This document shows, piece after piece, positions 25,729-45,490 of a stretch of DNA of 64,000 nucleotides (position 1 is its first letter; every line of letters begins with the position of its first letter). The stretch spans positions 24,054,709-24,118,708 of the forward strand of contig OZ316894.1 in assembly GCA_973895155.1 (NCBI GenBank). Direction: 5' to 3'. Below the pieces are notes generated by a model. The model made no database searches. It was given only the letters and a program-made list of their open reading frames with translations, and was not told the DNA's origin. This DNA is from Marsupella aquatica. Lineage: Eukaryota; Plantae; Marchantiophyta. The position numbers and the translations under genes are program-made.

Positions 25729-28700
25729 TCAAACCTGGTCCTCATCCTCGCCTCCATTTGACACAATAATAACGTCAGGTTTTTCCGAGATAATGGAACG
25801 GGACCGTGGCACATACGGTATAACAATTGACCACTCTAGGTCTGGTGGGTACGGAATATAGAAACACTGCTCAAGGTGACTTGGGAATGTAAATGGTTCA
25901 GATGTTTGCCAATGAGATGGTTGAAAGCTAGTTGCTGATGTCTTCAGTCGAGTAAACCCACACTCATCAAGAAGTACCGTGCGATTATCACCAACCAGGT
26001 GAATTTTGAACCACTTACACTTGAAGATATACTCTTCAAATTTGGAATCGGCATCATAGGATATGATCAAGATCTCCTCAATCTTCCCATAGTGAGGCAC
26101 CACATCTCTGATCACATTAGTGTCATGACGGCTACTTTGTGAATCTTGCATGAACTGCCCTTGAACTCCACAATCAAAAGTTCTTCCCCTCTTCTCATCA
26201 AGGTCAGAAATCCTGAAATGCCTCCCTTGTGTCCACATTGCTGTTCTGGTTTGAACAAGTCTTAAAGGACCATGAACAATTGTTCGAACCTCAGGAGTCA
26301 TATCTGGAAAATGTGATACATTCTCACCTTGGGCCACCATAGCATCCAATTGAAGTACTTTCTCCTTCATATACTCAAGGAACTTTGGAAAGATCCTTGG
26401 GCGACGACTCTCCCTCTTTGCATCCTCATAAAACTCTCTCCAATCTTCCATCACATTGTTGTTACTCAACATGAAAGTACTAACCTGTGTCAACTCCACT
26501 GCGGTTAGTAAGCGTGTTTTTTTTGCACCTGTTAAACGGTCCTCCTCCACTTCCCTCTCTTCCATCCAAGTGCGTGGAAAACTAGGATCAATGGTAGCTA
26601 AGATGTTACTACAATAAAACATACTCTCAGCTGCCAAGTATCCAGTTGCCATGCTCCCCTCCACTCGTGCACGGTTCCGTACATAAGCCTTTAACACGGC
26701 CATATACCTTTCCAGCCAATACATCCACCTACAATGCACCGGACCGGCAATGGCAACCTCCCTCACAAGATGAACGAGAAGATGCACCTGACAATCAAAG
26801 AAGGAAGGAGGGAGGGCCTTCTCCAACTTGCATACCACCTCTGCTGCCAATACCTCCATCCGTGGTATCTCTTCTTCATATATTTCCTTTGAGCATATCC
26901 ATCTCAACAAAGTGCCCAGTGACCAAAGGGCGTCTTGCACTTCTTCACTCCCCAAACCTATGATTGCCACAGGAAGTATATGTTGTAGTAAACGATGATA
27001 GTCATGTGTCTTGAGATACATTGGCCATTTATGACTGTCCTCCATCCCAAAAGCCTTACGTAGATTGGCACCATAGCCTGTAGGAAACCGCATCTGCCCT
27101 ATGCGTTGTCGAAACTCTCTTCTTTCACCAACACTCAAAACCCATGGAGCTGAAGGACGATGTTCCATCCCTGTGGATTCATCAACTATTATCCATACAT
27201 CTGGATGTCGTTCTAGATCCTGGCATGCCTCCCTAAAATTAATGTTCTTTTCCCCATAAAAGTGCTTGATCAAAGCCTTCCCAACATTTCCCTCTATATG
27301 CATGGGGTCTAACAAGTGATGAATCTTCAACTCAGACCAATAGGGCAAAGTGGCCAGTATACCCCACCTTGTCAATCCACTACCATCAAATCCCATGGCA
27401 TCTTCAGGGTCTGCCACCCTATCAGCTATGGACTTCCAATACGAAAATGTGGTGCGGTCAGGTATCTCACGCTCATCACCATTGATCATGTCAAAGTCTG
27501 AAAACAAAAGGGGGTCAGACCTCATGTGATGCCCAAGTGGAAGAAACTTGGTATGACCAAGGTAGATTATCTTGTGCAGCCATTTTGAGTACTTGGCCAT
27601 ATCGTGAAGGCTTGGACCACAAAGTGGAGCATGCCTTGTACCCTTGAGTTTGGAACCCAGAAACAAACCCAAACCCTGCTCACAAAATAACATTCTCAAT
27701 TAGAGTCAAAGGAATTGAAAAGTTCATGTACATAGAATTAAAGAGGGACTTCCTTCCAAACAAACTTGATCTCCAATACATGAAAAAAATACAAATCCAT
27801 ACCACTCACCTGGATAGTCATGCATGGTCCACATAATGATTCCCTTCAATTGGAAGACACGTGGTAACCCTCCTGTAGTTGTCCGATCATCATATGCCCA
27901 TACACCCCCCCATAATTTATGGAGTTCCCCAACCAAGAGCGCCAAGTAGGTGTCCATGTTTTTTACCTTAGATGGACCTGGGATAATCAATGATAGCAAT
28001 AAGAATCCCTTTTTCATGGACAACCATGGGGGAAGGTTGTAATTCATAACAACCACCGGCCAAACCGAAGTAGGGCGCCCTTTCCCTCCAAGGGAGTGTG
28101 GGCTTACCCCATCTGATGCCAACCCCAACCTCACATGACGAGGGTCACGTGCAAATTCTGGCCATTGTGACTCCACATGCTTGTGAGCAGGGGAATCAAC
28201 TGGCAACCGCATGACACCGGCCTCTAATCGATGTGTCTTATGCCATACCATCAATTCTGCCAAGTCAGAACATCGGTACATGTGCAACAATCGAGGAATA
28301 ATAGGAAACCAACGAACAGCTTTTCTAGGCACCTTTGAGGTCAACATGTTGGTTTCATATCGAGGCTCTTGACAAATTGGACACTCAGTTGCGTTGGCAT
28401 TGGTCTCATGATAGAGAATGCAGTCATTCACACAAGCATGAATGATATGGTATTCCATGCCAATGGATGATAGAACCCTCTTTGCCTCCTTCCAAGTTCC
28501 TGGCAACACATTTTCACTAGGTAACAAGAGATCATGGCAAATTGCAAACAAATCCGATAGTAGCGCATTGCTTGCCTTGTGTTTTGCCTGAAGATTCATC
28601 AATGCCAAGATGGCAGATAGTCTATTCAAACGAGCACCCCCATAAATAGGTGTTCTAGCATGTGCCTCAGCTTCTTCCCATTGTTTTTGTCCTTCAGGTG

Positions 28701-28999
28701 TACGTTGAGGCCTTGGATCATGTGCAACATTTGGTGGAGGGTCTCCTTCATTGGGTGGGACACCTCCTTCACCACCAATGTCTACACCAAACCAATCTGT
28801 CATGAAGTCATCCATGGCTGACTCTTGGTCTTGCATGACCTCATAATCTGTCCGAGGTGCCCCTTCATCTGGACTGTCATTATCATTGTCACTTGATGAG
28901 GAATCTGCTGATGATGTTTCCCCGTCTTGTGGCAAGCCCATTTCTTGATATGTAGCTCTCAACCTCCTTGGCAACATATCTTGACTAGGCCGCACATTC
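25729..28999 (-). pseudogene. EnSpm/CACTA Tnp2-type transposase (Transposase_21 + DUF4218 + DUF4216-like)
   Basis: IHACVNDCILY, CPICQEPRY, WFPIIPRL, RHVRLGLASDG, YNLPPW, HDYPG, LDPMHIEGN, KTHDYH, PPSFFD..VHLLVHL, WMY.LERYM.VLK.YVRNRARVEGS, YGKIEEI, FKCKWF. Intron ~27677-27808 and an apparent frameshift just after it. Confidence 0.93.
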
Positions 29000-29148
29000 T
29001 ATAGAAAATACAATAAAGTATTCACAATGAAATTAACGCCAAATATAGTAGTGCTCGAAACATATTATTAACAATATAAAAAGAACATATCATTACAAAA
29101 CATACGTTCACATACGATGAACGTATAATACATGTCCCTAAAGTAATC

Positions 29149-29965
29149 CTAATCCCATTCATAATGTGTAAACAACTCCTCTCCAACCAGAATGGTCCTA
29201 TTAGCTACAACTAGACAATGGTCATGATGATATCTCTGCCCATAAGGGGCTGGAGGGGGACCATCAACAAAAACCCATTCATAGTTTTTCCTACGCTTAG
29301 GCCGGGTCCCCACAGTACTGTTGATGAAACCGGCAATATTCCCACTACGGATGGGATCACCATCAATTATACGCTGGTCACAATACTTTCTGGTGCAACC
29401 ATCAAAAGTATCCATGTCCAATGCATAAGTCTTCCACTCAGGGTGTTGAACAAGGATCATGTTCCAATGTCTCCTCTTGTAAATGGGTCCACCATACGGG
29501 AACAACGTTGGTCCATCTGAAGAGCGCCCTTTTCCACCCATATCATCCACAATAATGTCCTGACAAGAGAAAATCCCATACCCATGCCTCTCCCCTAGGG
29601 TCGAACTCTTGACAACCCAACGTCTTCCCCAAACTTCTATCTCCTCACCATAGGTTATATCACATGGCAAACCAAGGCACTCCGGATTCCAATCCTTTAT
29701 GATAGGAACACACTTCCCTGTGAAGGTACAAGGGCCCCATCTACCATCAACCCTACAAGTGTACTGATCCACTTCCCCTCTAGGCTGTCTTTTTGACTTT
29801 TTTTTCCCTCTTGTAACAATACCGCCACCCTTAATTGTCCCAACACTACCTTGCCCTGCTGCCACTAAACGAAAAGCTTGTGAAAGTGCCGAGCCTATAG
29901 CATCTAGAACTCCTTGTGAGGGAACATAGGGTGTTGGTGTAGTGGGTGTAGGCCTACTGGATACC
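29149..29965 (-). CDS. SET-domain (lysine methyltransferase-like) exon carried in the CACTA transcription unit
   Basis: Open frame with VKSS...HGYGIFSCQDI, FPYGG, IDG...GNIAGFINS...N, VVANRTILVGEELFTHY: the SET signature motifs. Acceptor AG at ~29966. Confidence 0.8.
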
Positions 29966-33835: not shown

Positions 33836-35747
33836 ACGCATTCATACCATTTTGAGATTTTAGAGTCTAGGCGGAGGACCCTAAGGGCAAGCATTCCAAC
33901 ATAGGTCAACGCCCACATTCGAATGCCAAGGCAGAGCACCCAAACTGCTTGCACTCAAGTGCATGCAGCCCACCTTCATCCACTAAATAAAGGTGAGCAC
34001 GATAATTGTGGTTGTGATGACCAATTGCAGGAAGATTCCATTCTTGAGAAGAGGAGGAAGGATGCAGACAGGAAGAGATTTGAGTACCAAAGGAGCAAGC
34101 GCTCTGTTCCAGAAGACGGTGTAACTCCCAACCAAAAGAGAAGGTGCATTACAATTGTGTTATCAGATATAGTTAGGTACATTTTGGAGAAGACCGCTAC
34201 ATTCAATGTAGGTGCAAGGAGGGCAGTACTATCTGGTATCTGGTTGCACAAATACTTGAAGAAGTACCAGCCTACAAGACTAGGTTTGCCTAAAATGGAT
34301 TGGGCTGTAGCTGCTGCATTATAACACGATTTCGGACCGACCGAGAAGTGTGTCGGAGTTCTCGTTTAGCCCGATCCCATTTTTTTTCTAAGGCAATGCA
34401 ATGACCGATAAAACTGGCAAAAACTCTCCAAAATGCCACTTTCCTCCATTGCATCGCCGCGGGAATGTAGGGAGCGATACGTGCATCGGGTTTTACATTC
34501 CATCAGTGAAAAAGTCCAAACTACGAGGTCCAAACCGCATAATCCAGGAACGACCACGCACTAACCCAGGTAAAGGGGAAACTTAACCATGGTTAAGGGG
34601 AAATTAACCATGGTTTAGAGCGTCTCCTATATAAAGAGGAGCGGGCTGCCCATAAAACGTTTGCTTTCGCCAGAGCAAATATCTCTTGACTGAGAGCGAA
34701 TACCAAACTCCCATCGAGTCTTACATTCCTCCCAAGCGATTCGACTCTTTCTACCGAAAACCCGATAAATTTATCGGAACAACCATTCCTGTTCAAGTTC
34801 TCCATGTAAGACTAACTAGTCATTTAGTGTAAAATGTCCAGATCTGAACGGACTACGATAAATTTATCGCATTCTGCATTCCTCTGTTGCAATCATTTGA
34901 TCCAGTGTTTAGAGAGGTGTTGCCTTCATTCCGATAAATTTATCGGAGTCTTCATTCCTTTCATGGAAAGAGGAGTAATTGAGAATCCGATAAATTTATC
35001 GGAGTTATCATTTTTGTGAAAGATTGAATTCAGGGCTTAGGTGTCTGAGGAAGTCATATTTTCAATTCGAATGCGGAGTGCGATAAACTTATCGCATCCT
35101 CCTGTGAGAATCATTTTCCTTTGTTTTGTTTGGAGACTCATCTTCATCTCTGATGTCACAGTGTTGCCGGGTTTAGGAGGCACAACGGAAGGTCGATTGC
35201 ACTCCGTGGACAACAGGTATTGTGACAAATGGCTGTCTTCCATGTATTGTCAAACATGCATGCCGGTTGTACAAGAGACTTGTGCGACTCAAAGTTCTCC
35301 CCATCGGTATAGGAGCATTGTGGATGGGTGGTACTGATCCTGGAGATAGGCAGAATCCTCTCCGCATTGAATTTATGGAATGAATGATGCAGGAGTTCCA
35401 ATTCGTTCGAGGTTGATGTTAACGGCGTGTTTACATTCTTTGGAGTTTTCTTGTAACTATTGTTGTCGTCGTCTTGACAACAAGTACCACAAATAGGCTC
35501 ACTTCTGTTGTAAGATTTGGAACGAAGACCCTTGGGTGAACCTTTCACGATGAGTGTTTTGACCTTTGCATTGAGGCGCGTCTTGTAAGGACATATTTAA
35601 ATAAACAAGTCCTACCCTTGCGCAGCGAATATAATACGTCACGAGTCCTAATCGTTAAACTGTCGTGCAGGGTTGGTATTGTGGATGTGTTCGGTTACAC
35701 CTGGTGATTGAAGGTATTTTTATTGGTGGTTTTGGTAGCTCTGCTTC

Positions 35748-36290
35748 ATGGCTGCGTCGGAGAATCTAATCGTTGCAAAGATGGGATCCGTTTTAGCCCA
35801 CGAGCGTAGGAAATATATTCGAGGAAAAGTGCTCGGTGTGGAATGTGGAACTTTGTTGAATGGACTTCCCGATCAACTCATTGAATCTCACATTTGGCCC
35901 CTCCTAGCCTTGTCTTGCACACAAGATGAACACCTTGGCCTTGACCTAAAACTTCTACCAGAAGAACGACTGACTCGAATGAGAACAATCATTTGTCTTG
36001 GAGCCACCTCAAAGAAATGGAACCATCTTGTTGTTGGTACACGATTTTGGGCGCTATTGAAATATGCAGTCCATGAGATCAATGACATAAACAAAATGCT
36101 TGCAAGCATTCCTAATGCCGACCTTCTCTCAAACATACATATTGCTAGGGTCTTCCAAGAGGAAACTCATTTCCTCCCTCCCATAGATATGCTTGGGTGC
36201 TTTTTGTATGAGCAGTTAGATCAGTTTCGTAGAGTTTGGATAAATCTTGGAGAAAGTGGGAAGCAGACAATTCTTGCATGGCATGGATGA
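35748..36290 (+). CDS. F-box-like protein (cargo of the Sola1-like element)
   Basis: Intact 180-aa ATG ORF with LNGLPDQLIESHIWPLL ... LGATSKKWNHLV, matching the two ends of the F-box signature with an insertion between them. Confidence 0.55.
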   Translation: MAASENLIVAKMGSVLAHERRKYIRGKVLGVECGTLLNGLPDQLIESHIWPLLALSCTQDEHLGLDLKLLPEERLTRMRTIICLGATSKKWNHLVVGTRFWALLKYAVHEINDINKMLASIPNADLLSNIHIARVFQEETHFLPPIDMLGCFLYEQLDQFRRVWINLGESGKQTILAWHG

Positions 36291-36859
36291 GTCTGAGTGG
36301 ATGAGGCATTGCTGTGAACATCCGATAAATTTATCGCACTCCTCATTCCTCTAGTCGATTTTGGGTGCTCTAAGGTTTGCTCAAGAAGAGCTTGTAAAGA
36401 AACACTTTGAATGTAATTGACTCTGCCTCCCCTGACTTCGGGTGGTGTGGTCCAGAGTGTATTTGTTTGCGCCTCTTTGGACGATTAGCTGACAAGTGCA
36501 TTGGCTTCACAGCCCGTTATACAAGGTACTGTAAAGTTGGATGAAACTTGTAGAATTGTAATTAGTATGTTCTCCAAAATTTATTCCTGATTTCTATTCG
36601 GTGATCAGACCATGCTCGAGCGACGCATTTTTGTACCCTACTTGGATCCTCCAGAATGGGGGAATGGAGCCATGCTGGACCAGCTAAGAAGGCTGGATGA
36701 GTCACTAATTTTAAAGATATGCAGGCTGGTAGTAAAACCATAATGCATTTCACTTCTACGTAGATCAGGTACGGGGAGAAATTTATATTTGGTGGGATAG
36801 ATATGTTGGATTTTCTAGAAGAGTTATCCTACTCTTTCTGAAAACCGGTGTAGTAAGAC

Positions 36860-38805
36860 ATTTTATACTCGACTGCTGTCATGTTGTGAAGAGCAATCCT
36901 GCTTATGATCCAGAATTCTATGCCGACAATAGACGTAGAGCATTCGATGAGATTCAGGATGTGATTGACGAGCTGGACAATCCTCTTGCCACCGAGTTTT
37001 TTATTGACACTGGTGGGAAACTATATTCATACAAGATTCGTCAACTCCCCCCCAGCCGGTCTGTGCGCTCTTTAACTTGATCTATGTAAGTTGCCTGTGG
37101 ACGAACGTCCTTGCCAATGGTGAGATCTGTCCATGCTGCACAAATGCTTGTTGTGACATTCCGTCCGCCAAGGTGAAGAAACTATTTTTGCAGATATCTG
37201 GTCAGCCAGATTGGGCAACATGCAGAGAAATGTTTCCCAACGAAACAGATGTCTCGGTCCTTGGCATATGGGCGGAGAAATTGAGTGACGCGGTAAGCAT
37301 TCCTCTCACAACATGCTCTATCGCGAGATTTTTATCAGCTTTAGCATTCCTTTGTTGGTTTCTAAGCGATTGCATCTATCAGCTAGCGTGCTCCATCGCA
37401 AGATTTTTATCGGCTTTAGCATTCCTTTGTTGGTTTCTAAGCGATTGCATCTATCAGCTAGCGTGCTCCATCGCAAGATTTTTATCGGCTTTAGCATTCC
37501 TTTGTTGGTTTCTAAGCGATTGCATCTATCAGCTAGCGTGCTCCATCGCGAGATTTTTATCAGCTTTAGCATTCCTTTGTTGGTTTCTAAGCGATTGCAT
37601 CTATCGGCTAGCGTGCTCCATCGCGAGATTTTTATCGGCTTTAGCATTCATCTCACGCTATTCTAACTGTAGATGTGTCTGACATTTTTACAGCTGAAGA
37701 TTAATTTAAAAAGGAAAAGCAAAGTGGTTCCGGCTGTCACTTATAATTCTGCGGGGGAGGTTATTTTTCCCTCAGCTGAAATCCCTTATGTGTTTAAGAA
37801 TTTTGTGCTTGCTGCAATCGATAAGTACAATCGGCTGAGGTCCTTAGGCGAGGGCACAGCAGAAGCGTTTGAACAAACATGGAAAAATGCAGACGGGGAT
37901 TCTTTTCCCTACTATCTCCATGTTGGTGATGTTCGAATTTTGGATTCTTTTGTTCAGCCAAGGGCTTACACCCTTGTGGTTGCGGATATTCCGTATGGTT
38001 TTAATGCTCCTGGTTCGGAGTTTGATGAAGTGGCCTTCACAGAAAAGGACATTTTAGACATGTTGACAAGTTTCTCAAAGATGACGACCGCTAAGTAGTG
38101 GAGGTTTGTTGTGATCCATTCACTACAACAAACGCATATGGTGATGTCTGCATTGGACAGTGTATGCAACTGTGGGTCGAGGCTGGAATCTGGGAGAAGA
38201 CTAACATTCATGAGCGTCCCGCTGGAGCTCGATTGGCGTGGGGTTTTGAGAACTGGTCGATAGGTTTCTATAGCGAGGAAGGCATTCGGAACATGGACAT
38301 GTACAATTTCCAACCGGATGAGTCTCACGTCAATATCATCAAGGTTCCATGTGTAACCAAGAAGTCCGTTGATCCGTTGGGATTTGTTGTGAACCCGTAT
38401 CAGAAGCCTGTTGGTTTGGGGGCTTGGTTTGTTTCCCATTTTTTTGAGAAAGAGGATTGGGTTATTGATCTTTGTTGTGGAACCAGATTGACATTAGCTG
38501 CTACGCTCCTCAATTCTTGCCAGGGTTGTGCTGTTGATAAGAGTTCTACGCAGATTGATTTTGTGAAATCCCGGATCATGATTCTGGAGTCAAACTGGAA
38601 TTTATATGAAGAATCCCAAATTGAAGGGCACGGCATTGAAGGTCATGAGATTCAACCACCAATTGCAGGCCAATTGGGTGTTCTCGGGACATCGACTTAC
38701 ATAGTTGAGGTCGTGAAGGAGACCGAAGAGGAACAAGAAGAAACTAAGGAAGAGCCTCCCAGAACACCAAATGAGGATGATCTCAACGACATGTTATTAG
38801 ATTAG
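36860..38805 (+). pseudogene. Beta-class N6A/N4C DNA methyltransferase-like gene (cargo of the Sola1-like element)
   Basis: GDV..LD, LVVADIPYG (motif IV, DPPY-like), IWEK.N...FE.W.IG, NPYQKPVGL, WVIDLCCGT..T.AA...G.AVD (motif I): beta-class order. Introns ~37086-37192 and ~37292-37693. One stop (38096-38098) and a frameshift. 5' end uncertain. Confidence 0.8.
37314..37650. repeat. 75-bp tandem repeat x ~4.5 inside the MTase intron
   Basis: Unit gctccatcgcaagatttttatcggctttagcattcctttgttggtttctaagcgattgcatctatcagctagcgt. Each unit carries a cg/caagatttttatcg variant of the element palindrome. Confidence 0.95.
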
Positions 38806-39139
38806 TTGCGTGTGCTCGTTAGGATAATGTCAATCACCAATGGAGTTGTCGATAAATTTATCGGATTCTGTATTCCATGAGGAAGAACCTTGGTCACCTT
38901 TATTAATGCAATAAATTTATTGGACTTTGCATATATCAGACTGTCGCGGTGTTCTAGCTGGGGAATGGAGTTGTCGATAATCTTATCGGACTTAGCATTG
39001 TATGCTCTAATTGGTTTGTCATTGCAATTATTTCAAAAAAAAAGATATCATTATAGCTGCGAAGTACATAGTCCCAGAACGATAACCACTATACATATTC
39101 ATGGGAACGATAACCATTATAACTTAAACCTGCAACTAG

Positions 39140-42100
39140 CTTCGACTATCAACGACTACAGTCTCCATTGCATTTTGAATGATTCGTCTTGTTTGTATAG
39201 GGAGAGTACTATTTGCCAATAACACAAAGTTATACGCATAAATGGCAGTTCTGCTAGGGACAATTCATCCTCCAGTACTTTTTTAGACGAAGCCTCTTTC
39301 TCCGGATAATATCTGCCTTCAATTGCAGACTCTTCCTCCAAATCCATTGCATACCAAGTGATTTTAATCCGCTCCGGGATGTCGTTAATTCTTGTGAGAA
39401 TCTCAGTCACTTTTGCCATCCAGAATGGTCTTCCCTTGGGATCCTGATGGGCTGCTACACATATCATTGCAAATTTAGTATTCACCTCTAGATCCTTGAG
39501 GTCTCCAATTTCCGTGACTTTTCTTCCACTTCCGGAATACATGACAGTCCTCACACCCGCTACTTTATCAACCAAGCTAGGTTCCATTGCTGCTTTTGTA
39601 GGATTACTCAGAAGTTCTCTCTGTACGTTTACCTTGGGCCAACTCCAATCAAAACTCCATTGTGCAGGTTTCAGGTGGTGCTGAATCGCTTCTTTTTGTT
39701 TGTCAAAAAAACGACCCCACCATAGATGATCTTTGTCGTCAAAGTAATTGAATCCATCTTCAATTGCTCTTCGATATTTTTGAAGAGTTGACAAATAACT
39801 TTGAGCCGCCCGCTCATCTTGTTCCTCAGCATCATTCTCTTGCTCTTCATTGTCTCCTGTCGCTCCCGTGGCCGACTTCAATGCCATTTGTGGTGCGACC
39901 CACATTCCAGATGATGGAATGTACCGAACAAAATCCCCCGTCTCCCCCCAATCGGTTGTCGTTGAAAGATGTTTGGCATGGAATACGGACCGAGCACTTC
40001 CATCTTCGAGTACTCTAGTAATCCAAAATTGTTTTTGAGCACTTATGTCGTGGAGAGTACGTAGAACCTGACCATCCATATCCTTGTCATTTGCTTGATC
40101 CTTGTCTGACACAAATTTCTTGAAATCGGCAACCTCGTCGACAAAAAATATCTTTGCCATAGGATTGTAGGATTCCTCTATGATTGCTGAAAGAGTGTCC
40201 AACCGGAAAGCTTTCCGCTTGTTCAATTTTGAAGAAAACTTGCTAAACATTTGATCAATTTGATCATGGGTGTGCCCCACCAATAGGAAACCAACCTTTA
40301 TTTTCTGGAAAACACCTATCTCCACCAACATATTCAAATATGCCATAAGATATTTATTCTTGTTTTCCCGAGCTTTGTTATCAGGCTAGAAGTAAAGCAC
40401 TGGAGGGAGCAGACCTTCCCAGGTATTCAAAATATGCTGGATAATGTGGATGGTCAGGTTGCTATCATTGTGAATATTTGGATAGTTCAAAAAAACATTT
40501 GAACTTAATTGTTTGTTGAAGATCAAACAACCCACTACGTGTACGGTGATGAAATACTTTTCATCCATATTCTTCAGACACCGAATGAAATGAGGTAACT
40601 CTATCTTCTTTTGATCCATTCCATCAATACAGATGCCCAAATATTTCTCCGGACTCTTGTAACATTTCATCCGGTGCTTTGCTAACTTCTCCCTCTCGAC
40701 TGCTTGTGCCTTCCGATGCTCGTTTAGCAATGTTGAGAATTTTCCTACAATAATAAAAATGTTTAGGACAAAACATGATAATAGCAATGTTGAACCCTGA
40801 CAGCGATAAATTTATCGGGTTCAGTATTCAAATACGAGACCGTAATGATAAACCCTGACAACGATAAATTTATCGGGTTCAGTATTCAAACACAAGACCG
40901 TAATGAAAAACTGTGACAGCGATAAATTTATCAAGTTCAGTATTCAAACTATTCAAACGATATATTCACTCACATGGCCAAAGAAGAAGCACATGAATAC
41001 TCAACCCGATAAAATTATCGGGAGTAACACACAGGTTTAGAAACTTACTCTTTTCTGCTTCGAGTGTTGCCTTATCACAGAGTGCTTTGAATTCAGTACA
41101 CGGGGTGCAGGTGGAGAAACGGCTCCTTTTGGGGATGCGCACGCGAGGAAACTCCTTGTTCCAAATGCGAACAAACCACGAATATGTCATGCCTTGTTCT
41201 TGGCGCATTAGAGTTTTGGACTGGAAGGCATCAAAAACTTCTGTTTTTGTCCAATTGTCAGGTAAATGAAAGATATCCTTGTTGGGGAGACTCTCGACAT
41301 TTGTGGAAAAAAAATCATCCAACCATTGGACGAGACCAAGATATGCGGGTGATTTTTCTCGACAAACTGTACCGATCTGTATCCGAGAAAACATGTTCTG
41401 CGAGATTTTTTGGAGACGATTATATCCTAGTGAAAATAATTTCTTAAAACCACTCCAACAAAAGGATCTACCGCTAACTGAGTAACCACTTGCACCAACA
41501 TGCCCACCCTTCACCCATCCTCTTAGAAGGACGTTCTTCTCTGGGTAGGATAGCCCATAGTAATAAGTGCGTTGTTTCGTCACGGCTAGCAGACCCAAAT
41601 TTCTCAGACAATAATTATCACAACACAAATACTTATGAATTTCTCTCATTTTATTTCTATTCAATTTGTCATTTATCACATTGTCTTTCCTCAGTAATTC
41701 GGTCCCTATCTTTTTTACTAGGCTCATTTGACTTCTCTACAGCCTGAAATCCGTTCATAACATTGGCATTTTTGGGTCCTTCAGGTGCCTCGCGAATAGA
41801 TGCATCACTCTCTACTGAGCTACCATCCTCTATAGATCTCCTTGACGCATTTAGAGGGGCACTGAATAGACGACTATAACTATTCTCTTGAATCGATAGC
41901 TCCTTCTAAACATTCAGACACAACTTGTGCTATTATATCGGATTCTCTATCTCCTTCCTCATCTTCGTCCTCCGATGCACTCGACTCATCTGAAAACACA
42001 ATTGGACTCCGTGGCTCTCTATGCATAACCTGAACGCCACTAAGACCTCTCCTCAATACTTGGAGCCTGGAACCAATGATAGTCCGCCCTTGAGAACTTG

Positions 42101-42731
42101 GAGATTCTGGATTTGCACGTGCAGTCCCAACGACTCCGCGAGCTGCTGGAAAATTGATCACTTGTTCACCACGATTCCCACGGACCATTCGAGAAAGGGC
42201 TGAGTCTGGACTTTGCAGTCCGATTCCCTCGCTTGCTCGCACATCCAATCCAGGCAATGCAAAGACCGATCGTCATATCCGTCTTTGTATTTTTGTGTCC
42301 CAATCCTCACCCGGAGACTGAAAGATCCATCGTTGAACTTGTGTTGAATGTGGTGACTTGAATGCCGACTACGATACGCGTATCGGTCGCCGGATACCCT
42401 CTCCATAACCCGGGATGGATGGCCTGAAGCGACGTCTCGGACCTAAACCTGGGATTGAAAGTTTCTCATTTCTTGGCGATGGAATGCTCAAGAGACGACG
42501 CTTCTCAGGTTTACTAGGCGACACATAGTAAGCACTGGGCTCAGGACCAGAACTTGCATCAGAATCTGAGTCAGAGATTTCGGGCACTATTTGCTGTGAG
42601 AGAGGTAGAGCTTTAAGTATGCGACTTGGCAAACAGCGAACGACAAGATTAGGAGATGATTCCACTGAACTGGAAGGTGAATCTGTGTCTGATTGAGACA
42701 TGGCTATCCGAGACACTATGGGGCTTTGCAT
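39140..42731 (-). pseudogene. Sola1-like (DUF7869-type) transposase, disrupted
   Basis: CC...C, C...FKKL, ESLPNKD..HLP, F.RIW..EFP.VRIPK.SRFSTC..C, IDGMDQKK..LPHF, LYF(Q>stop).DN..RENKN.Y.MAYL..LVE.GVF, GFLLVGHTHDQIDQMFS. Intron ~40746-41048. Low-complexity N-terminus with frameshifts. Confidence 0.8.
40790..40950. repeat. 58-bp tandem repeat x3 in the transposase intron, one CGATAAATTTATCG per unit
   Basis: aaccctgaca.cgataaatttatcgggttcagtattcaaa.ac.agaccgtaatga repeated. Confidence 0.92.
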
Positions 42732-42987
42732 TCCTCCCGCAATCAGGGAAAACGAAAGGCTCAACGGACATAATGTTGCTCCAAGAACACAACTCCCAAA
42801 ACTCTACTCTCGATAATGACGCCAAAGACTTATCGGCGGTGGCCCTTTTATAGTGTCTGTTGAGGGGTTGGCCCATGTGTTCACTTTTGATTGGCTGTCA
42901 CCCTAAACAACAAAATAGCATAAAATGGTATATTTCTTGGATTTCCAATTTCATTCTCACACGTGCATCGTGGCAAAATTATATAGT

Positions 42988-43135
42988 TTTGAAATTGAAG
43001 CGATAAATTTATCTGATGTTGGTATTGCAAAAGTGGTTCCTTCATATGGAAGTTGCAATTTGAAATTGAAGCGATAAATTTATCTGATGTTGGTATTGCG
43101 AAGAGTTTTCTTCATATGGATAGGAATTTTGAAAT
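42988..43135. repeat. ~70-bp tandem duplication with palindrome variant upstream of the Sola1-like transposase
   Basis: tttgaaattgaagcgataaatttatctgatgttggtattgc...cttcatatgga x2. Confidence 0.85.
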
Positions 43136-44439
43136 TTAACCGATGAACCGAAGGATCTTAGTATTGTCGACTTGTATTTTTGTCGCCCGTAGTTTTCGCG
43201 ATAATTTTATCGGACTGCGCATTGCTGTTGAAAGAATGGCATGTTGACTATGGTCACTTGCGGAGGTAACTGGTCAATTGCGGAGGTAACTACAAGGTAA
43301 GTTTGACGAACCGTGCAGTAATTCTTATCGACTGTGATGTAAAATATTTTTGGTAAATATCCAAAAACTAAGAAAACTAAGATTGGGTCAGAGCTTTCAT
43401 GGCTCAAATCCGGAGTCCGATACAGTTATCGCACTTGGCTCGAAACGTGGATATGGATTTATAGATAAGACCTTTCATATATCTTCGGAGAGCGTGAATA
43501 TGAGGTTGAGGAGAAAGTTTTTCGGATCTAATTGTTCCTTGATAATATGAATGTTTGTTAGCATGAATTTCATTGGTTTTGATCATTATTAAATTTGCTG
43601 TTTCAATCCGAACTCCGATATGAATTACATTATTTCCCCAAAAACGTGTTTTTGATGAAAAAAACTGTCGATTTCGTGAGATTCGGCGAAAAATGAAAAT
43701 ACACTTCTCGTTTAGAGGAAATAGTTCTCGTTTGGTCCGAAATCGTGTTTTATGTGATGTGAGGAAAACCTTGAGCATAGTGAAGCAAAGGAAGCGCAAA
43801 GACCATCTTGCTGCAAAGTACCAAGTTTTGTCAGCACTTGTAGGAAAGACATGTGTAGATAGAAGGCAACAGACCTCTCTAGCTCAAGCTTTGGGTATAC
43901 AACGGCAAAATCTTCATAGGGCATCTAAGATCAGGATGCAGATTTATGAAGATCGTGAAAAAGCTTATCCTATGGGGGAAAGAAAGGTACGTCGAGATAA
44001 GATTTTTGATGAAGTTCGAAAACAGGTGGAACACTTTTGGGAAACCCACACTCGGATTTCTCCATGTAAGAACAATGAAGCCAGATTGCGACTAGGGCGG
44101 AAAATGTATGAAACACATCAAGTGCACTGGCTGGAGGATACACAGGTGAGAAATTCTCCATGATTGATTTGCCACTTTTGATTTTAACTCATAATACGAT
44201 CTGCAGATGTTGAGAAGTAGTTTTCCTTCATGTGTGCTTTAGCCATTGTGCTTTGCTATAACCGCCTAGTTTTTTCTTTAAGGTAGGATCTCAATAATTT
44301 TGTGAGACCTGACGTCCTATATAGCCTAGCAGGAAGGACTCTGTTCCAGGAAAATTCCTTCAGGAAGCACTGTTGAATCCTTGTCAAGTGAAGTCTGGCA
44401 TGAGACGAGTTGAGTCCTTGGCAAAGTACTATCTAGTTA

Positions 44440-45490
44440 ATCACTAAGGACTATATAGTCCTTGACTCAGGAGTATGGATAGCAGTGAAGTCCTTAGTCA
44501 AAGGACTTTACTCCTTGGATAAAAACTATACTCCTTTGCCCAGGACTATATAGTCCTTATCAAAGGACTTTACTACTTTCTAAAGGACTATAGTCCTTTC
44601 TAAAGGACTATTAATAGTCCTTACTCAAGGACTTTACTGCTTTGTAAAGGACTATAGTCCTTACTCAAGGACTTTACTACTTTGTAAAGAACTATGGTCC
44701 TTTCTCAAGGACTTTACTCCTTTGTGAAGGACTATTAATAGTCCTTACTAAAGGACTTTACTACTTTGTAAAGGACTATAGTCCTTTCTCAAGGACTTTA
44801 CTCCTTTGTGAAGGACTATTAATAGTCCGTACTAAAGGACTTTACTACTTTGTAAAGGACTGTAGTCCTTCCCCAAGGACTTTACTCCTTTGTAAAGGAC
44901 TATAGTCCTTTCTCAAGGACTTTACTCCTTTTAACAGGACTACTAATAGTCCTTGGACTTTACTCCTTGGTACGGGCTTTCGTAAAGGACTATAGTTCTT
45001 ATTCTTTCAAGAACTGTAGTCCTTTCTCAAGGACTTTACTCCTTTTAAAAGGACTACTAATAGTCCTTGGACTTTACTCCTTGGTACGGGCTTTCGTAAA
45101 GGACTATAGTTCTTATTCTTTCAAGAACTGTAGTCCTTTGTAAAGGACTATAGTCCTTACTCAAGTGTTTACTCCTTTGTAAACGACTATAGTACTTACT
45201 TAAGGACTTGACTCCTTTGTAAACTAAGGACTATTTGAAGTACTTTACTCCTTTGTCGAGGACTGTCTTTAGTCCTCATCCGAGGACTATGTAGTCCTTC
45301 GATAAGGACTTTAATCCTTTGTAAAAGACTATAGTCCTGGGTTGTGTTACGTCTATAGACTAGTCCTTTGTCAACGAGTGAAGAGCTTTGACCAAATGAT
45401 TGTAGTAGTCCTCCCCGATGGACTTTAGTCCTTAAGCTTTGCTGGTAGTCTTCCAATGAGGATTCCAACCCTTGCTGAAGGACTTCAGTC
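44440..45490. repeat. ~1-kb intronic array of palindromic AAGGACTATAGTCCTT alternating with AAGGACTTTACT(C/A)CTT
   Basis: Dozens of aaggact/agtcctt half-sites, with higher-order duplications (e.g. ~44910-45025 vs ~45025-45140). Lies in the intron starting GTGAG at 44146. Confidence 0.95.

Follow-up and report, generated by a model that had tools for sequence, protein, structure and literature searches.

Why does a transposon of a liverwort contain a gene resembling the DNA amino-methyltransferases of bacteria and phage, and is this gene a regular part of the element or a chance acquisition? The question is raised by a 64,000 nucleotide stretch of Marsupella aquatica DNA (contig OZ316894.1, positions 24,054,709 to 24,118,708; the whole stretch is referred to here as the window), in which an element at 34323-43749 encloses a transposase gene on the minus strand and a spliced accessory gene, ending in a DNA methyltransferase (methylase) exon, on the plus strand. 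An initial annotation described a cleanly bounded Sola1-like transposon that had carried a beta-class methylase with it. Our results indicate, with a probability of about 0.65, that the window holds a dead copy, with an internal deletion, of a plant Sola-type transposon that is present in many copies, and that the fixed cargo of this family is a spliced gene ending in a beta-class methylase, predicted to modify N6-adenine (N6A) and to act on the element's own DNA. Feature coordinates are collected in Table 1.

The element is ∼9.4 kb long and is bounded by terminal inverted repeats (TIRs) and a 4-bp TTAT duplication. Its left end, AACACGATTTCGGACC (34323-34338), is an exact 16-nt inverted repeat of the right end (43734-43749, reverse complement), the arms agreeing at 23/25 and 27/35 positions. 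By itself the count of this 16-mer is weak evidence, as 2 matches (≤3 mismatches) are found compared with 0.52 expected and 12 of 100 shuffles also reach 2. The boundaries are settled beyond this statistic by two further observations. Sister copies were read from Logan contigs in four runs of two organisms and, in run X3, a single contig fuses 34318 to 43750 with four letters shared, corresponding to an empty site with one TTAT, although this contig is borderline in that its shorter side is 29 nt. In addition, the flanking frame stays open for 275 codons through the rebuilt empty site. The clean bounding of the element proposed initially is therefore borne out by its exact ends, the TTAT on both sides, the empty-site contig and the open flanking frame. 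The frame into which the element inserted belongs to another repeat (33905-34322 and 43754-44163), which is present at a depth of hundreds to thousands in runs X2 and X3 and has no match in Pfam.

The methylase is fixed cargo of this family and is under purifying selection. The methylase region is covered at a depth of hundreds to thousands in all four runs, with many sister pieces ≥99% alike, which indicates recent amplification of the family; internal-deletion derivatives of the element are also present among the sister contigs. Diverged relatives were provided by six loci with intact methylase genes, all from one metagenome. In L003 and L004, the only loci with sufficient downstream DNA, a DUF7869 C-terminus with 52–56% identity lies convergent behind the methylase, as in the window, and the gene pair shows ∼55–60% protein identity to that of the window in the same orientation. 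The ratio of nonsynonymous to synonymous differences per site (pN/pS) is 0.19–0.39 in 15/15 pairs among five loci and the window, with pS saturated, and the corresponding substitution ratio (dN/dS) of the single unsaturated pair is 0.127. A one-off capture, in which a single copy took up a host or bacterial methylase fragment in the manner of Pack-type elements and with no lasting tie to the element, would be compatible with the broken state of the methylase in the window and with the presence of an unrelated F-box-like frame, which implies that the element can carry foreign pieces. It is contradicted by the conserved pair and orientation in L003 and L004, the high-depth cover of the gene in four runs, the pN/pS values and an intron kept in three lineages, and this explanation is largely refuted and highly improbable. 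The proposal that the methylase travels with the element is thus upheld by the layout of the two loci, the sister cover and the purifying selection. Exact family peptide patterns gave 32 and 42 candidate stretches in prokaryote genome contigs and IMG/VR viral contigs, none of them a relative, scans which say little about the donor because only close relatives are detectable by them. No RNA dataset was listed as containing the element.

The copy in the window is dead, its methylase being broken in three ways and its transposase core containing a stop codon. Two of the methylase lesions, a 1-bp deletion and altered residues in the S-adenosylmethionine (SAM)-binding loop, are private to this copy, as at ≥50% of their depth the sister copies retain both the G that is missing here after 38173 and the GTGS loop; relative to the window, sister copies in all four runs carry 38485 A>G (Arg to Gly) and 38489 T>C (Leu to Ser). 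Both the loop and the deletion site are therefore preserved in most sister copies, which, with the purifying selection, disfavours one-off capture. An intron at 38096-38176 was considered and rejected, as relatives are gapless and collinear across this interval and sister copies carry one extra G. The change of frame is not a splice because the in-frame TAG and the 1-bp deletion account for the break. Thus, the spliced plus-strand gene of the initial annotation is retained with respect to its splicing (donor 37293, acceptor 37693) but not with respect to an intron inside the methylase exon. Across 37660-38820, 14 of 20 majority differences (≥50% of sister depth) are A/T in the window and G/C in the sisters, a bias as expected for C>T and G>A decay, such as a silenced copy would undergo when its methylated cytosines deaminate.

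Assignment of the window gene to the PF01555 (N6_N4_Mtase) family is made through its intact relatives, since these pass the profile threshold while the window's own broken pieces do not. The pieces had no Pfam match at E≤1 and, against Protein Data Bank (PDB) sequences, matched at the level of motif I only (E 0.39–0.82). In contrast, all six intact relatives tested exceed the PF01555 gathering score (30.5–36 bits vs 26.7), and 18/28 more distant relatives also reach this cut-off, several across the entire profile. The hidden Markov model (HMM) search suggested initially is therefore positive by way of the relatives. Thirty homologues were found at E≤0.01 among metagenome and Sequence Read Archive (SRA) assembly proteins, with the exon collinear without gaps, the best, P0001, sharing 71% identity over a 236-aa query. 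An exhaustive profile search extended the family to 1399 relatives at E≤1e-3, 171 of which are at E≤1e-10. The order of the methylase motifs, IV, X, I, is that of the beta class, the DIPY, QKP and D.CCG elements noted originally being present at 37985, 38401 and 38467. An AlphaFold2 model of P0001, based on an alignment of 52 sequences, has a predicted local distance difference test (pLDDT) score of 91.6, and the top Foldseek matches to this model are all beta-class DNA amino-methylases (E 1.4e-14 to 3e-10), including CcrM (E 1.4e-14), M.BceJIV, rotifer N4CMT, MboIIA, RsrI, M1.HpyAVI and PvuII, at 14–21% identity.

Conservation of the residues expected for catalysis bears on whether the accessory protein is a methylase at present. 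D76, W145, K147, Q215, K216 and G241 show little or no variation in the 52 sequences, which extend down to ∼20% identity. A protein which has retained the fold for binding only, either as a DNA-binding or partition-like factor or with an RNA or protein target, would fit the variant form of motif IV, DIPY instead of DPPY. This is unlikely in view of the near-invariance of the catalytic and SAM-binding positions, the retention of DxPY in most aligned rows, the purifying selection and the best structural matches, which are DNA enzymes solved with DNA bound.

The target base is predicted to be N6-adenine rather than N4-cytosine (N4C), from the residue which begins motif IV and from profile comparisons. 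A census of motif IV covered 196 aligned domain rows from retrieved proteins, 122 of which had the motif columns filled; the first residue is D in 113 of these, N in 4 and S in 3, and the variants include DIPY (51 rows), DVPY (11), DAPY (10) and DPPY (9). The family profile matches N6A enzymes at E 4.5e-15 to 1.7e-10, compared with 1.3e-4 to 1e-3 for the N4C enzymes N4CMT and PvuII, N4CMT being at 1.3e-4. In two publications, SPPY or TSPPY is given as the mark of N4C enzymes and DPPY as that of N6A enzymes (bioRxiv 10.1101/2021.02.12.428880, PMC8885841), with TSPPY carried by MpDN4MT1a/b of Marchantia according to the former and SPPY by rotifer N4CMT according to the latter. The initial annotation had suggested relevance to the origin of the liverwort N4-methylcytosine (4mC) enzymes. 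An N4C methylase related to, or the source of, the DN4MT1 enzymes would be consistent with the inclusion of both N6A and N4C enzymes in PF01555, with the presence of N4CMT and PvuII among the Foldseek matches (E 2e-12 to 9e-11) and with a liverwort as the origin of the nearest named long transposase relatives. This origin is very unlikely, given a D at the start of motif IV in all but a few rows, S being found in three, where the published motifs of MpDN4MT1a/b and N4CMT have (T)SPPY, and a profile which favours N6A enzymes, with E-values lower by ∼7 to 11 orders of magnitude. The enzyme of the family is therefore predicted to methylate N6-adenine and not to make the 4mC of liverwort sperm, and its adenine-type catalytic motif cautions against tying family genes to the liverwort 4mC enzymes.

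The accessory gene is a spliced fusion whose upstream domain is weakly ParB-like. L001 and L002 each have a same-strand upstream frame of ∼350–380 codons with a phase-0 GT donor at its end, and their methylase exon follows a CAG acceptor in the same phase. The window shares this donor (37293) and this acceptor (37693), the intron thus being kept in three lineages. In P0191 (408 aa, SRA assembly), the upstream domain runs directly into the methylase N-terminus without an intron, and many long relatives, such as P0043, P0048, P0055, P0061, P0079 and P0170, have a match to the upstream-domain HMM on the N-terminal side of their methylase domain. One of these, P0043 (1825 aa), contains the upstream domain twice and the methylase domain once. 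In the window, tblastn and HMM searches recovered only positions 297-341 of the 347-position upstream profile (∼45 residues), and the loose contig ends which X3 shows at 37165 and 37167 suggest that sequence was deleted internally from this copy or its subfamily. L001 (403-1782) and L002 (138-1238) hold a third conserved frame, ∼250–450 codons long, on the same strand 5' of the ParB-like exon; it has no Pfam match and is missing from the window. In several relatives an acceptor-like CAG precedes the ParB-like exon. On the basis of this frame and this acceptor, the full accessory protein may reach ∼1000 residues and be akin to the 1104-aa protein of Ectocarpus discussed below.

Candidate sites for a DNA-binding protein are abundant in the element. 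The 14-bp palindrome CGATAAATTTATCG has 17 matches (≤2 mismatches) in the window, all within the element, where 0.14 are expected and 0/100 shuffles reach 17. Copies are located in both arms, the intergenic spacer and the transposase intron, and the 75-bp tandem array in the intron of the accessory gene bears a related, imperfect form. Diverged loci have other palindromes, GAGCGAGAC..GTCTCGCTC in introns and spacers of L001, L004 and L005 and ACCCGAT-N6-ATCGGGT in L002. Lineage-specific palindromes of this type suggest that the sites and a protein which binds them have co-evolved.

Assignment of the minus-strand gene to the DUF7869 transposases is confirmed by frames 39156-40385 and 40386-40811, which match PF25273 (DUF7869) at E 6e-31 and 1e-08, respectively, and are separated by one in-frame stop. 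Sola transposases use a D-D-D core. Three conserved acidic motifs (IDGMDQ, DN..RENKN and GHTH.D.D) are collinear with eight long DUF7869 proteins. The closest named long relatives, with 32% identity, are two proteins of the liverwort Riccia sorocarpa, and the nearest ESM Atlas clusters are DUF7869 proteins from Streptophyta. Serine-rich frames at 41880-42701 probably form the N-terminus of the transposase, as judged from the collinear low-complexity N-termini of its relatives. A literature search for the term DUF7869 found no papers. The element has a 4-bp duplication, AAC... termini and an opposite-strand accessory gene in common with Sola1-1_Ec32 of Ectocarpus, as compared by published description, and is here considered to be probably Sola-type, with formal membership of Sola1 left aside. 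The label is restricted in this way because the TTAT target does not fit the Sola1 preference and because Sola1 was compared by published description.

Several observations weigh against the reading proposed here, the first of which concern the superfamily. For Sola1, PMC3845634 cites Bao et al. 2009 for an AWWT insertion preference, and TTAT (ATAA on the transposase strand), representing one insertion only, lies outside it. The Sola1 assignment is also based on a comparison with published descriptions. Both points would be explained if the element were not Sola1 proper and belonged to a separate DUF7869-bearing superfamily, or to a deep branch of Sola that prefers targets of its own, in which case the tie between DUF7869 and Sola1 would lean on features common with the described Sola1-1_Ec32. 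We consider this improbable, in view of the 4-bp duplication, the D-D-D-type motifs and the AAC termini (AACCG in Sola1-1_Ec32), together with the same opposite-strand accessory gene in Sola1-1_Ec32 (PMC12477816), whose target duplications are described there as biased towards ending in A. Sola1 is also already on record for Physcomitrella, in a review table (PMC9033089).

The remaining points against the Sola-type, N6A-methylase reading concern the accessory gene and its sites. The copy in the window is without the rest of the upstream half beyond ∼45 residues. HTH_ParB matches 4/14 members of the upstream domain with a best E of 8.6e-4, below the gathering score, the best PDB match to the upstream-domain profile is Spo0J at E 0.1, and a profile search of the wider family gave no ParB match. 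Where its second residue is not proline, D-x-P-Y is a variant motif, and motifs are an unsafe guide to the target base. The palindromes are putative binding sites of either the accessory protein or the transposase, a role which is conjectural. Finally, the TAG at 38096-38098 is absent from the list of majority differences in all four runs, so that the recent subfamily may largely hold a dead methylase already, a state which would argue against a need for the enzyme in cis.

The design itself is not unprecedented, as a Sola1 element with an opposite-strand gene for ParB-like and DNA methylase domains has been published for Ectocarpus (PMC12477816, Genome Biol 2025). As described in that paper, Sola1-1_Ec32 is 21.5 kb long and its opposite-strand protein of 1104 aa combines a ParB-like domain with a DNA methylase predicted for 4mC or N6-methyladenine (6mA); the paper points to the same design in green and red algae. 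Like the element in the window, the DNA transposon Sola1-1_Ec32 duplicates 4 bp of target and has AAC termini, and its methylase accessory gene lies opposite the transposase, the arrangement being convergent in the window, L003 and L004. Transposase genes of many families are pseudogenised in Ectocarpus also. Unlike Sola1-1_Ec32, the present element is found in a host of land-plant type and not in a brown alga, is 9.4 kb rather than 21.5 kb long (compared by description), has TIRs of ∼25 nt instead of 282 bp imperfect repeats and a TTAT duplication, and, in the window copy, retains little of the ParB-like half. A literature search found no report of this design in land plants, the Ectocarpus paper being the only relevant one.

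Among enzymes, the family methylase resembles the bacterial and phage ParB-linked beta-class N6A methylases of PF01555 (CcrM, M.BceJIV, M.RsrI, M1.HpyAVI) in its fold, its motif order, its (H/N)P.QKP motif and its D-x-P-Y catalytic loop; the nearest ESM Atlas clusters, as a lead only, are largely phage PF01555 enzymes. It differs from the bacterial and phage enzymes in being encoded by an intron-containing eukaryotic gene, whose product has an acidic C-terminal tail, within a eukaryotic transposon, in having mostly I or V and not P as the second residue of motif IV, and in its low identity to the solved enzymes. MpDN4MT1a/b and rotifer N4CMT are likewise beta-class PF01555-type amino-methylases of prokaryotic ancestry in eukaryotes, and the N4CMT structures 8s9o, 8s9m and 8s9n are among the Foldseek matches to the P0001 model. 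These, unlike the present gene, are host genes with (T)SPPY and not transposon cargo with D-x-P-Y. Retrotransposons and giant transposons which carry C5 DNA methyltransferases or TET/JBP enzymes are further elements that encode their own DNA-modifying enzyme. In contrast to these, an amino-methylase is carried here, by a Sola-type cut-and-paste element.

Table 1. Features of the element at 34323-43749 (window coordinates; a dot in the strand column denotes no strand).
Feature	Position	Strand	Remarks
Target-site duplication TTAT, left copy	34319..34322	.	4 shared letters at the empty-site joint 34318->43750
Left TIR	34323..34347	+	16 nt exact, 23/25 matching
Left-arm cluster, 5 CGATAAATTTATCG copies	34763..35094	.	
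183-codon open frame, left arm, role unassigned	35739..36290	+	F-box-like PF12937 match, E 0.075, below threshold
Remnant of last part of upstream (weakly ParB-like) exon	37167..37292	+	GT donor at 37293-37294
Phase-0 intron of accessory gene, GT..AG	37293..37693	+	Common to L001 and L002; contains 75-bp x 4.5 tandem array (37314-37649)
Methyltransferase exon, beta-class PF01555 family, pseudogene here	37694..38805	+	∼370 codons, intronless
Methylase motif IV, DIPY (ADIPY)	37985-37996	+	
In-frame TAG stop in methylase	38096..38098	+	H, I, M, F or N in relatives
1-bp deletion (frameshift) after 38173	38173..38176	+	Extra G in most sister-copy depth
Methylase motif X, NPYQKP	38392-38409	+	QKP at 38401
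Methylase motif I, DLCCGT..	38467-38490	+	
SAM-binding loop changes	38485..38490	+	GTRL here, GTGS in relatives and sister copies
Three CGATAAATTTATCG copies between the convergent genes	38850..38988	.	
Last transposase exon, DUF7869 core	39156..40744	-	GHTHDQIDQ 40251-40277, PDNKARENKN 40356-40385, IDGMDQ 40611-40628
In-frame stop in transposase catalytic core	40386-40388	-	Takes the place of Q in LQ.DN
Transposase intron, GT..AG	40745..41048	-	Contains 58-bp x 2.8 tandem array bearing the palindrome
Upstream transposase exon, Cys-rich	41049..41736	-	Collinear with Riccia DUF7869 proteins
Ser-rich, probable N-terminal transposase frames	41880..42701	-	Candidate ATG 42701-42699
Right-arm cluster, 4 CGATAAATTTATCG copies	43001..43431	.	
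Right TIR	43725..43749	-	Pairs with left TIR
Target-site duplication TTAT, right copy	43750..43753	.	

Other sequences lie in and around the element. The 183-codon frame of the left arm has high-depth cover from sister copies and may be a captured host fragment or an additional accessory exon. Elsewhere in the window, which is plant-like in its content, are found a CACTA Tnp2/DUF4218 transposase, DUF4283 and zf-RVT frames of long interspersed nuclear element (LINE) type and a PIF1 helicase. CACTA-type frames (Tnp2, DUF4218, DUF4216) occupy 25729-29964 on the minus strand, and the frame that comes after them weakly matches a SET domain (E 6.5e-4, below the cut-off); this CACTA element may be a second transposon with a chromatin-enzyme passenger. 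Immediately to the right of the element, at ∼44450-45300, short hairpin repeats are dense, with stems AGGACTA and AGTCCTT in ∼12 copies each.

A mechanism can be proposed for the intact members of the family. The upstream ParB-like half would bind the lineage-specific palindromes in arms, introns and spacer and so bring the methylase to the element, and the resulting methyl mark would regulate the element. The mark may time transposition to newly replicated, hemimethylated DNA. Dam methylation times transposition of bacterial IS10 and Tn5. Alternatively, the mark could interfere with host silencing. The copy in the window would be movable only with proteins supplied by intact copies. A more far-reaching proposal, which is tentative and on present evidence rather doubtful, is that land plants of bryophyte type hold live self-marking transposons, in which a fusion of ParB-like domain and methylase reads the element's own palindromes and writes 6mA, thereby gating transposition or shielding the element from silencing by 5-methylcytosine (5mC).

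Transposons with their own DNA-modifying enzyme are rare and bear on the conflict between mobile elements and host silencing. To these is added here a plant family with very many recent copies, a deeply conserved gene pair, a conserved intron joining the halves of the accessory gene, clear purifying selection and lineage-specific palindromes. The family thus provides a concrete, testable system for amino-methylation and palindrome binding and, if the proposal of self-marking is true, such transposons would also account for some of the 6mA of plants, as a source that has so far gone unnoticed.

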